14,006 nucleotides of DNA from Escherichia coli. GTDB lineage: Bacteria > Pseudomonadota > Gammaproteobacteria > Enterobacterales > Enterobacteriaceae. The stretch is from assembly GCF_003334255.1 (NCBI RefSeq), contig NZ_QOWU01000080.1; one strand, 5' to 3'. How positions within the stretch are numbered: position 1 is the stretch's first letter; the number at the start of each line of letters is the position of its first letter. Shown one piece after another: positions 3,214 to 6,149 of this stretch. Under the pieces are notes generated by a model. The model was not told the DNA's origin. It saw only the letters and a program-made list of their open reading frames with translations, and did not search any database. The translations under genes and the position numbers were made by a program.

Positions 3214-3767
3214 AATACCTGTATTGAATCCATTGGTGAGACGGTTAACAGCGTATTAGCTAACTGATATTTAGCCACCATCCACTGTCGTTGAACTTCT
3301 GGTGTTGCATCTGGCTGCTTACTTGCACGCCCTATTTTCAAAAATTCAGTAGTTGGCTGCCCGCCTACCGGAGCTAATGATACTTTTTTACTACGATAAC
3401 TAAATTCAAAATAGAAACGTCCAGTAAGACCTTGCTGTGCTTCGGTTTGGTCAAAGTCGACATCTAATATAAAACGATTTTCCGACACCATGCGGGTTAC
3501 CAACTCAAAACAATCACGGGCCCCCCTCCCCGGAAAGGCTGTAAATAATGCTAATTCCCGACGTTGCAGGGGCTCATCCTGCGGTGATAGCAATGAAATA
3601 GCCCTTTGTAGTAACCGAAATCCCAGTACTACGCCACCAACAGCATCATACCCATGATAATTGAAGGCATCCTGAACCGAGAAAGAAAAAAGCTGATGAT
3701 TATCTGCAACGTTTAGGGATGGCATAACCCATTGGGATACAGGGATAAGACCTGGATTAGTACTCAT
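3210..3767 (-). CDS. Hypothetical protein (185 aa), first gene of the ABC operon; paralog of the 290-820 product
   Basis: ORF overlaps the permease start by 4 bp; shares conserved blocks with the 176-aa ORF (see finding). Confidence 0.6.
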   Translation of the reverse strand: MSTNPGLIPVSQWVMPSLNVADNHQLFSFSVQDAFNYHGYDAVGGVVLGFRLLQRAISLLSPQDEPLQRRELALFTAFPGRGARDCFELVTRMVSENRFILDVDFDQTEAQQGLTGRFYFEFSYRSKKVSLAPVGGQPTTEFLKIGRASKQPDATPEVQRQWMVAKYQLANTLLTVSPMDSIQVL

Positions 3768-4504: not shown

Positions 4505-4537
4505 CGTGTGTTATCGCAGAAATGCCCACGGAACGCC
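4500..4537 (-). repeat. Tn3-family 38-bp terminal inverted repeat (right)
   Basis: Reverse complement reads GGCGTTCCGTGGGCATTTCTGCGATAACACACGCTAAG. Confidence 0.65.
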
Positions 4538-4879
4538 GTTATGGCCGTGAATGTGCCGACGACCTGGATTAATTCTGGTATGAGTGAGTTTGACAGCCGG
4601 TTGTTTGCAGCCATTAACGATATGCTGCTGGATATGCTGGCCGCTGTTGCCAGAAGGGACTATGAACAACGGCGGGAACGCCAGAAACAGGGGATAGAGA
4701 AAGCAAGGAAAGACGGCAAATATAAAGGGCGTAAACCTAATCAAGCCAGACATGATGCAATTATCAGGTTGATAGAAAGTGGCAGCTCCTGGACACAGGT
4801 ACAGAAGGTGCTAGGGTGCAGCCGCGGCACAATCAGTAGCGCAATAAAACGTAAATCCCGGCAATCCTCCGGTGAGTAG
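4508..4879 (+). pseudogene. Serine recombinase (resolvase/invertase) C-terminal fragment; catalytic N-terminal domain absent
   Basis: Contains LLDMLAAVARRDYEQRRERQKQGIEKARKDGKYKGRKP followed by an HTH-like tail (SWTQVQKVLGCSRGTISSAIKR); convincing similarity begins around 4570-4580; no S-T-x-x-Q catalytic region upstream. Confidence 0.5.
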
Positions 4880-4994: not shown

Positions 4995-5174
4995 TTACGC
5001 GACCTCAGCCTTTTGCGGTTTTGGCTTGGTGATATACCACGATAGACAACCGACAATAAAACTCATGAACATTCCAGTAAAACGATCATCGATGCCTGGA
5101 AACAGGCAACCGACAAACATCGCAACAGGGAAAGGAAGAAGTAAACAGCGCCCCAAAATGCTCATAAAATCCAT
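4995..5174 (-). CDS. Small hydrophobic membrane protein (59 aa), unknown function
   Basis: ATG at 5174 is preceded by AGGAGG with a 4-nt spacer; product MDFMSILGRCLLLPFPVAMFVGCLFPGIDDRFTGMFMSFIVGCLSWYITKPKPQKAEVA. The six-frame track extends it to a GTG at 5210 inside a hairpin, which I consider unlikely. Confidence 0.4.
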   Translation of the reverse strand: MDFMSILGRCLLLPFPVAMFVGCLFPGIDDRFTGMFMSFIVGCLSWYITKPKPQKAEVA

Positions 5175-5192
5175 AAATCCTCCTTTGTTAAA

Positions 5193-5219
5193 GGGCAGGA
5201 AGCGGTGCACTTCCTGCCC
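5193..5219 (-). terminator. GC-rich hairpin, probable terminator of the toxin transcript (possibly bidirectional)
   Basis: 10-bp perfect stem GGGCAGGAAG / CTTCCTGCCC with a 7-nt loop, about 20 nt downstream of the toxin stop; followed by TTTAA on the minus strand. Confidence 0.5.
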
Positions 5220-5240
5220 TTAGTTACGTTTCCGCAGTCA

Positions 5241-5336
5241 TCAATCGATGAACTGACGGATCAGTTCCAGAACTGCAATCAGCGCGTTTGCAACGGCGAC
5301 CACAGCCCTGAGAACGATGATTAACAGGTTAATCAT
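5241..5336 (-). CDS. Candidate type I toxin: 31-aa hydrophobic peptide, DinQ/TisB-like
   Basis: Not in the ORF track (below size cutoff). Translates to MINLLIIVLRAVVAVANALIAVLELIRQFID; GGAG sits 6 nt upstream of the ATG; resembles DinQ as recalled (shared IIVL and ALIA.LELIR blocks). Confidence 0.5.
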   Translation of the reverse strand: MINLLIIVLRAVVAVANALIAVLELIRQFID

Positions 5337-5413
5337 CCGTTTCTCCAGGTTGATACTGGAGGAAGTTGCCGTTGCTTGCTCATACATCGCCTGTCACAAC
5401 GGCTCTCTCACAT

Positions 5414-5453
5414 TGTTGGATGTAGAGTACCTTCCCCCTGCCAGAGCACTGAA
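5414..5453 (+). repeat. Copy 1 of a ~40-bp repeat, within the putative toxin leader
   Basis: TGTTGGATGTAGAGTACCTTCCCCCTGCCAGAGC... is roughly 85% identical to the copy at 5658-5697. Confidence 0.6.
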
Positions 5454-5623
5454 CACAGCACCACCTGTTTGTTCAGCCAGGGCTTTAATTCGTTCATACC
5501 CAGATAGCGCAGGGTTTAGAAGCAAGGGAGGCACACTGTACAGCGCCAACACAAAGATTATACAGATGCACGCATAAAATTCATTTAAAGAAATGGCCAT
5601 TGACAGACAATCTGAAGTCAAAC

Positions 5624-5650
5624 TAGACAACTGGTGTCTAGTGCCATAAT
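5624..5650 (+). promoter_or_regulatory. Putative sigma70 promoter for the small RNA
   Basis: TAGACA (5624-5629), 15-nt spacer, extended -10 TGcCATAAT (5642-5650); alternative -10 TAATAT at 5647-5652 with a 17-nt spacer. Confidence 0.3.
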
Positions 5651-5656
5651 ATTGTG

Positions 5657-5748
5657 GATGTTGGATGTAGAGTATCTTCCTCCAGTCAGAGCCACCAACT
5701 CAGGACTGGAAAACACGAAAAAGCCCGATTACCAGTCGGGTTTTTTTG
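5657..5748 (+). ncRNA. Candidate ~90-nt small RNA (AgrB-like antitoxin), divergent from the toxin gene
   Basis: Promoter-like elements upstream and a strong intrinsic terminator at the 3' end; body contains repeat copy 2, which is imperfectly complementary to the minus-strand toxin transcript at copy 1. Confidence 0.4.
5722..5748 (+). terminator. Rho-independent terminator
   Basis: Stem GCCCGA / TCGGGT with loop TTACCAG, followed by seven T; A-tract upstream, so possibly bidirectional. Confidence 0.6.
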
Positions 5749-6149
5749 TGCCTGTCGTTCGACTGTTCTTCCGTTTTTTCCCTTCATTTGGGGGATTTTC
5801 TTTCAGTTTTTTTGTTAAGTCCAATGCTGCCGGTCGCGTTGGCCAACAGATCAATGCCGTTATCGGCGTTTCCATTAATCCTTTTTTTCAGTAAGTTGCA
5901 GCACAAAAGATGATTAAAAAGCTATCAGTTTTTTTGATGGATACAGTAGCGGCGGTACGCTGCGTGAAATCTGAGGTTTTCGGGTAGGATTGGTCGCGAG
6001 AATTTACGAGAGAGCGACGGGCGGTTTCTGCACTGAGACAAGATACAACCGTTCTTTTTTTTCCCCTTCACGCCGTAGCTGAGCGATCTCGTCTCTGTTA
6101 CGCTGAAGTTCAATGATAGTCGTAATATTTAACTCTTTACCTCTTTCGT

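Follow-up and report, generated by a model that had tools for sequence, protein, structure and literature searches.

A palindrome at the start codon of the plasmid toxin gene dqlB corresponds to a conserved, predicted mRNA hairpin homologous to SL6 of dinQ

The architecture of the chromosomal dinQ-agrB locus, which is the same as that of the locus studied here, has been described (PMC3567139, PMC5066626). A SHAPE-supported model of E. coli dinQ mRNA has a 3' domain made up of SL6 (G194-C215), SL7, SL8, and the terminator (Kristiansen et al. 2016, RNA 22:1739, PMC5066626). This domain is the same in the inert +1 RNA and in the translatable +44 RNA, and SL6 is present in both (PMC5066626). Translation of dinQ starts at a GUG at G195, with the Shine-Dalgarno (SD) sequence at G184-G187. 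The on/off switch is the upstream SD hairpin SL5, which is governed by 5' processing and by AgrB (PMC5066626). Translation of the +44 RNA in vitro proceeds with an intact SL6, and the SD of this RNA is SHAPE reactive; the authors could not exclude a standby component (PMC5066626). Covariation analysis in the 2016 paper was limited to the 5' UTR (SL2, SL4, and a/a'), and the function of SL6 was neither tested nor discussed (PMC5066626). SL6 has been drawn before and never examined; here we found that it covaries across subfamilies.

Plasmid dqlB-agrB homologs have been validated as addiction modules on pOXA-48 (PMC12365149) and on the IncX3 plasmid pOXA-484 (PMC12317039). The toxicity of these homologs, its neutralisation by AgrB, the pairing of AgrB with the 5' UTR, and post-segregational killing were demonstrated in that work, which makes no mention of mRNA folding at the start codon (PMC12365149, PMC12317039). 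A published survey found dqlB-agrB in 3,310 of 15,775 typed plasmids (PMC12365149), and our search found it in 4,945 of 72,556 PLSDB records. It is among the commonest addiction modules on resistance plasmids. The layers that restrain translation of the toxin matter for plasmid-curing strategies, whether these trigger the toxin or neutralise it.

We analyzed a 14,006-nt stretch of DNA, here called the window, which carries a known and annotated type I toxin-antitoxin plasmid addiction module, dqlB-agrB. The dqlB coding sequence (5241..5336, minus strand) encodes a 31-aa DinQ-like type I toxin followed by a stop codon (MINLLIIVLRAVVAVANALIAVLELIRQFID). DqlB matched NCBIfam NF041473 over its full length (residues 1-31) with 72.8 bits (cutoff, 35). 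The 900 bp around the palindrome were 100% identical to many E. coli plasmids, NZ_CP060062.1 among them, in which RefSeq labels this ORF dqlB, "DinQ-like type I toxin DqlB" (WP_000609149.1). The gene for the antitoxin sRNA AgrB lies at 5661-5748 on the plus strand, divergent from dqlB (Rfam RF02891; 68.8 bits; gathering score, 40; E value, 3e-10), with a promoter-like site, TAGACA-17-TAATAT, at 5624..5652 on the same strand. The pOXA-48 and pOXA-484 modules share with this locus the gene family, the AgrB sRNA, and the divergent layout. A RefSeq hypothetical protein, WP_000887751.1 (~5658-5894, plus strand), overlaps the AgrB gene and is probably an ORF called in error across a non-coding RNA gene.

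The AgrB target region in the dqlB 5' UTR, which contains "sequence 2," lies at 5414..5461 (minus strand). We found that 5414-5461 and 5659-5706 form a 48-nt direct repeat with 79% identity, near-perfect over the first 22 nt. Because the plus strand here repeats the 5' part of AgrB, the dqlB mRNA is complementary to the sRNA. The anti-SD element ("sequence 3"; 5355..5365, minus strand) is CUUCCUCCAGU, and AgrB carries an exact copy of this 11-mer at 5676-5686 (plus strand), which suggests that the sRNA mimics the anti-SD element displaced from "sequence 2." The SD itself, GGAG, lies at 5343..5346 (minus strand), 6 nt 5' of the AUG, and the block GGAGnAAACGG-RUG is conserved in all homologs. 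Following the dinQ model (PMC5066626), we predict an SD hairpin homologous to SL5 ("3:4") at 5343..5361 (minus strand; CUCCAG-UAUCAAC-CUGGAG). A putative -10 box of dqlB, TATAAT preceded by TG, lies at 5557..5562 (minus strand), as judged by alignment with the mapped dinQ +1, so that transcription would start near 5550. An intrinsic terminator with a 12-bp stem lies at 5191..5221 (minus strand). We found no match to CTGT-N8-ACAG with up to 1 mismatch near 5550-5600, and the chromosomal dinQ promoter carries the LexA box TACTGTATGATTATCCAGTT (1984-2003 of locus L022). A dqlB promoter without a LexA box fits constitutive transcription for post-segregational killing, not SOS control.

The first-pass annotation had described a palindrome with 9-bp arms at 5317-5336. 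These arms are correct, and one further G/C pair on either side extends them to 10 bp, giving a perfect inverted repeat at 5316-5337 that reads GATGATTAAC-AG-GTTAATCATC. The repeat also has, as described, an ATG at each end on opposite strands, at 5317-5319 (plus strand) and at 5336-5334 (minus strand). The minus-strand ATG opens the 31-aa toxin ORF (5336..5241), which is dqlB. No other perfect inverted repeat in the window has arms of at least 10 bp and a short spacer, and about 0.17 would be expected per window by chance (14,006 positions x 13 spacer lengths x 4^-10). The plus-strand ATG is not conserved and is ACG in the IncN and IncL/M variants. We considered an antisense ORF from this ATG (5317..5577, plus strand, 86 aa) and rejected it: its start ATG is absent in many homologs (GUC variants), and no record annotates it. 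With up to 1 mismatch, GTTAATCATC occurred at seven sites in the window (1.24 expected). The five outside the palindrome, at 3695, 5909, 7474, 8423, and 12771, are all unpaired, and the one at 5909-5918 forms the start, G-ATG-ATT-AAA, of a 25-aa ORF (5910-5987, plus strand).

Read as RNA, the palindrome can form nine of its 10 pairs; the central C.G, at a position that differs between homologs, would leave a loop of only 2 nt. The resulting start-codon hairpin (5316..5337, minus strand; GAUGAUUAA-CCUG-UUAAUCAUC) has 9 bp and a 4-nt loop, with the AUG at stem positions 2-4. The 22-mer had a predicted free energy of -6.7 kcal/mol, compared with -0.75 +/- 1.0 kcal/mol for shuffled sequences (z = -5.9), and none of 200 shuffles folded as well. 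The first-pass annotation had proposed folding the 5' region of the toxin RNA, and we found that the AUG-containing stem was predicted in both the full-length and the processed mRNA. We took the full-length mRNA as 5550-5190 (361 nt) and the processed form as 5488-5190 (299 nt), cut at the position that aligns with the dinQ +44 site; both the start and the processing site come from the alignment. In each form the minimum free energy (MFE) structure and the centroid contained the 9-bp start-codon hairpin, together with the SD hairpin (CUCCAG/CUGGAG) upstream and a 52-nt SL7-like hairpin (5264..5315, minus strand) that abuts it directly downstream. Both forms folded better than their shuffles (z = -5.7 for the full-length and -6.2 for the processed mRNA). 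The SL7-like hairpin joins the invariant GUUCU to GGAAC, which lies in the Leu-Glu-Leu codons, and its RNAalifold consensus includes compensatory pairs.

We also folded the region with and without the anti-SD element. With it, the SD hairpin formed 5 nt from the start-codon hairpin. When it was omitted, which mimics its capture by "sequence 2," 17 nt including the SD were unpaired and the start-codon hairpin stayed. Of the four-element switch, the 1:2 duplex and the 3:4 SD hairpin were predicted in the full-length MFE structure, and the 2:3 duplex was absent from that of the processed form. We also considered whether ACGG, invariant ahead of the AUG, pairs with CCGUU in SL4, and rejected this: the SL4 stems vary (for example, GUCGCUG in IncN copies), and ACGG is constant.

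In an alignment of 20 family members, window positions 5337-5316 matched dinQ G194-C215 column for column. We recomputed the dinQ numbering on MG1655, with +1 at the G of GTTAGC; this places the annotated start at G195 and gives GGUGAUUGAUAAAGCAAUCAUC as G194-C215. Because the two elements align column for column, we conclude from the sequences that the palindrome is the dqlB counterpart of SL6 in the E. coli dinQ mRNA. Both are 22 nt long, begin at the G before the start codon, and stop just before the GUUCU of SL7. Their outer pairs (G-C, R-U, U-A, G-C, A-U, U-A, and U-A) are identical, and their predicted stabilities are comparable (-7.4 kcal/mol for dinQ SL6 and -6.7 kcal/mol for the dqlB hairpin). 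The flanking SD hairpin, the AgrB target, and the terminator are likewise alike. They differ in that the start codon is AUG in dqlB and GUG in dinQ, and the dqlB hairpin has 9 bp and a 4-nt loop, whereas dinQ SL6 has 8 bp and a 6-nt loop. Pair 8-15 is A-U in dqlB and G-C in dinQ, a double change.

To compare the hairpin across the family, we collected about 150 loci: 20 plasmid loci (IncX1, X3, X5, I, K, L/M, N, and F), the loci from a scan of one genome per species, and 120 metagenome loci. The species scan yielded chromosomal copies in Citrobacter, E. albertii, Photorhabdus, Pantoea, Pluralibacter, Serratia, and Enterobacter, as well as a Haemophilus contig. Its search pattern, GACAGGC..GGAAACGTA, was too loose: about 13 of 120 loci were true family members, and the rest were mostly random loci. 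One of them, from Eggerthellaceae (L140), was dropped as a chance 11-mer match. The pattern used for the metagenome search lay outside the hairpin except for the hairpin's last two bases. The Haemophilus sputorum CCUG 13788 contig (L079; 2.6 kb) lies outside Enterobacterales, and its dqlB shares an identical translation initiation region with IncX3 plasmids (L007); the contig could be a piece of a plasmid or a contaminant. Five loci carried two dinQ/dql copies within about 1 kb, as tandem duplicates: L041 (Photorhabdus caribbeanensis), L106 (Pluralibacter gergoviae), L157, L170, and L197.

Among 25 dqlB sequences, all nine stem pairs were kept. The only changes in the stem were AUG-AUU to AUG-GUU, giving a G.U pair (5 sequences), and AUC-AUC to AUC-GUC, giving a U.G pair (6 sequences). 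Such wobbles pair on the mRNA strand only and break the DNA symmetry (in 11 of the 25), which argues for a hairpin on the mRNA strand. In the pOXA-48 copy (L016), the hairpin is the same apart from a single U.G wobble. Variation in dqlB was concentrated in the loop (AAC/AAU and CUG/UUG/GUG). The synonymous positions in the stem (AUU, UUA, AUC, and AUC) were invariant, and synonymous sites from codon 9 on varied freely. By these comparisons, the predicted hairpin proves to be the most sequence-constrained part of the dqlB coding region.

In four subfamilies, the start codon is followed by an insertion of three codons (AAA-GCA-UUU, AAA-ACU-UUG, GGG-GCU-UUA, and AAG-GUU-UUC). We found that each of these subfamilies has its own new 5' arm, complementary to its own 3' partner. 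In Photorhabdus, the 5' arm GGUGA.AGCA faces the 3' arm UGCU.UCAUC. In Serratia, Enterobacter, and their metagenomic relatives, GRUGA.AACUUU faces AAAGUU.UCAUC. The type represented by L151 pairs GAUGG..GCUUU with AAAGC..UCAUC, and L185 pairs GAUGA..GUUUUC with GAAAAC..UCAUC. The register of the stem was the same in all subfamilies: it begins at nucleotide -1 of the start codon and ends right before GUUCU.

We used this register for a covariation test in which the arms were set by anchors and not by structure, as the 10 nt that begin at position -1 relative to the start codon and the last 10 nt ahead of GUUCU. The test covered 17 distinct arm pairs, few and phylogenetically related, with the arms taken by hand from the alignments. 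Among them, 88.8% of cells were paired, compared with 80.3% in shuffles; 20 cells had changed on both sides, compared with 8.7; and the covariation score was 0.388, compared with 0.243. None of 500 shuffles was as high on any of these three measures, and slid registers scored far lower than the true register. Among these 17 related arm pairs, neither the number of pairs with double changes nor the number of pair types was above the shuffles. We regard the covariation counts as supportive rather than conclusive that evolution has maintained the pairing. The comparisons shown here, taken with the strand-specific wobbles, point to selection that retains the mRNA-strand hairpin across the DinQ/Dql family. 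What is modestly new is this evidence of RNA-level selection on the stem family-wide and of its rebuilding after N-terminal insertions.

Predicted stability also varied little. Most intact copies fell between -6.1 and -8.2 kcal/mol: the dqlB variants at -6.1, -6.3, and -6.7; dinQ at -7.4 and -8.0; Photorhabdus at -6.8; Serratia at -7.6; Enterobacter at -6.8; and the metagenomic types at -8.0, -7.1, -8.2, -6.8, and -6.1 kcal/mol. One copy, L185, reached -10.1 kcal/mol. Two apparently intact copies were weak exceptions, an IncX1 copy with a mutated SD (L002; -4.1 kcal/mol) and Pluralibacter copy a (-3.5 kcal/mol). A Photorhabdus thracensis pseudogene (L121:202-300), in which the GUG start has become GUA and a premature UGA is present, had a hairpin of -2.7 kcal/mol, compared with -6.8 kcal/mol in intact Photorhabdus.

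We propose that the palindrome is the DNA image of a 22-nt stem-loop in the dqlB mRNA and that this stem-loop probably acts as a constitutive brake on initiation, alongside the AgrB-controlled SD hairpin. According to this model, the 9-bp stem (about -6.7 kcal/mol) would take in the AUG together with the nucleotide that precedes it and the first six codons. The hairpin would be present in every mRNA isoform and would slow 30S initiation in all of them. Since the 30S subunit must take in mRNA from roughly -20 to +19 relative to the start codon, initiation would require the stem to melt. In the closed state (unprocessed mRNA, or mRNA with AgrB bound), the SD would lie within SL5 and the AUG would be paired in its own hairpin only 5 nt further on, leaving the entire ribosome binding site folded. 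In the open state (processed mRNA without AgrB), the SD would be single-stranded, and an SD-anchored 30S subunit would still need to melt the start-codon hairpin, so that toxin output would stay low and strictly dependent on SD exposure.

The first-pass annotation had suggested that the palindrome could sequester the start codon in RNA and so silence translation of the toxin. The first part is supported by the predicted folds, by conservation, and by the SHAPE-supported SL6 of dinQ, all of which put the AUG in a stem on the toxin mRNA. The second part is overstated, since the dinQ switch is SL5 and SL6 is also present in the translated +44 form (PMC5066626). In vitro, the dinQ +44 RNA is translated despite SL6 (PMC5066626), so the hairpin alone does not block translation. 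Because SL6 is found in the translationally active form, the hairpin would be at most a constitutive damper or second lock, not a switch.

A different role for the same hairpin has to be weighed. It could be a structural insulator or stability element and not a translational brake, one that helps SL7, SL8, and the terminator to fold the coding region up into local hairpins. This would keep the toxin mRNA long-lived, as post-segregational killing needs, and would keep the coding sequence away from the four-element switch in the 5' UTR. Such a role fits the way SL6 is followed by SL7 without a gap in a 3' domain that consists wholly of hairpins, the identity of this domain between the active and inactive forms of dinQ (PMC5066626), and the folding of the full mRNA, which is far better than that of its shuffles. 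However, the stem starts at the nucleotide before the start codon in every subfamily, even where three codons have been inserted, and an insulator needs no such register. A register fixed at the start codon suggests that the start codon itself is what is paired, which favors a translational role. We therefore consider a purely insulating role rather unlikely; the insulator and brake roles are compatible and not exclusive. A second arrangement would extend the hairpin outward to about 44 nt (window ~5305-5349), with the SD paired to CUC/AGG codons downstream and both SD and AUG sequestered. A 54-nt fragment does fold in this way (-17.3 kcal/mol; z = -2.85), but the structure was lost in every longer context, in which GUUCU pairs with GGAAC in SL7 instead. 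In addition, the third position of the partner codon Leu9 varies freely (C/G/U/A) without a matching change in the SD, and the dinQ SD is SHAPE reactive in the +44 form (PMC5066626). We judged the extended hairpin quite improbable and dropped it for its loss in longer folds and the free variation of its partner positions.

The pairing might also be a by-product of the peptide, in which Met-Ile and a later Ile-Ile give AUGAU and AUCAU by chance with no selected structure. The outer 5 bp do derive in every case from G-RUG-R and UC-AUC, where conserved hydrophobic residues are encoded, and the I-to-V changes that give wobbles are the most conservative amino acid changes. Such chance pairing is nevertheless highly improbable, given that synonymous third positions are fixed inside the stem and variable in the loop and further downstream, that double changes in the four subfamilies with insertions show covariation of the inner stem, and that the anchor-defined pairing beats both shuffles and slid registers. 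The first-pass annotation had offered a site for a dimeric protein on the DNA, such as a plasmid regulator or a host factor, as the alternative to an RNA role. This is what a perfect palindrome with 10-bp arms and an excess of half-site matches in the window might suggest. In contrast, the five matches elsewhere are unpaired singletons, and the one-arm A-to-G changes in 11 of 25 dqlB homologs break the DNA symmetry with RNA pairing intact. The arm sequences of other subfamilies are unrelated. The element occurs on plasmids with unrelated backbones (IncX, I, K, L/M, N, and F) and on chromosomes, and these have no common regulator. Its position is also within the coding sequence, some 215 nt downstream from the dqlB promoter and far from both promoters. 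The idea of a DNA site is thus unsupported, and we give it hardly any credence.

The proposed brake on initiation can be compared with other type I toxin mRNAs. The tisB mRNA likewise has a long 5' UTR, is activated by 5' processing, is targeted by its sRNA far upstream, and has a folded start region in the active isoform (PMC6690012, PMC7708055). It differs in that its SD is sequestered in the active form and that a distant standby site and S1 are required (PMC6690012, PMC7708055). We did not find SD sequestration of the tisB type in the active isoform of dqlB, whose SD is predicted to be single-stranded without the anti-SD element; the AUG alone stays paired. Local hairpins also limit translation independently of the antitoxin in hok and aapA1 mRNAs (PMC6733600). 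In contrast to dqlB, however, it is the SD that is paired in those hairpins, with anti-SD sequences, and they are either transient or reliant on 5'-3' long-range pairing (PMC6733600). In the dqlB hairpin, the start codon is paired with codons 5-7, and the pairing is predicted in all isoforms.

A stronger form of the brake model is one that we hold only tentatively, as possible but rather doubtful. Throughout the DinQ/Dql family, the hairpin could be a second lock that is obligatory and tuned in energy to about -6 to -8 kcal/mol, rebuilt after each insertion of codons behind the start codon. It would restrain the "open" processed mRNA from killing plasmid-bearing cells by making initiation depend on a standby-like, SD-anchored 30S subunit that has to melt the stem. 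If this were true, synonymous mutations that open the stem should make the locus unclonable without excess AgrB. The general picture of type I toxin control is unchanged by our analysis, in which the hairpin appears as a conserved and largely ordinary part of a known system.

Two further features lie next to the module. Directly 3' of the dqlB terminator and on the same strand is a 59-aa hydrophobic ORF (4995-5174, minus strand; MDFMSILGRCLLLPFPVAMFVG...) with a strong ribosome binding site, AAAGGAGG, and its own terminator (5006-4987). It is annotated in RefSeq as a hypothetical protein (WP_000347021.1) and matched nothing in NCBIfam; a further small membrane protein tied to the module is one possibility. 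The toxin module is also adjoined by a C-terminal fragment of a serine recombinase (4508-4879, plus strand), which is annotated as a pseudogene in an identical plasmid and suggests that the region has been rearranged.
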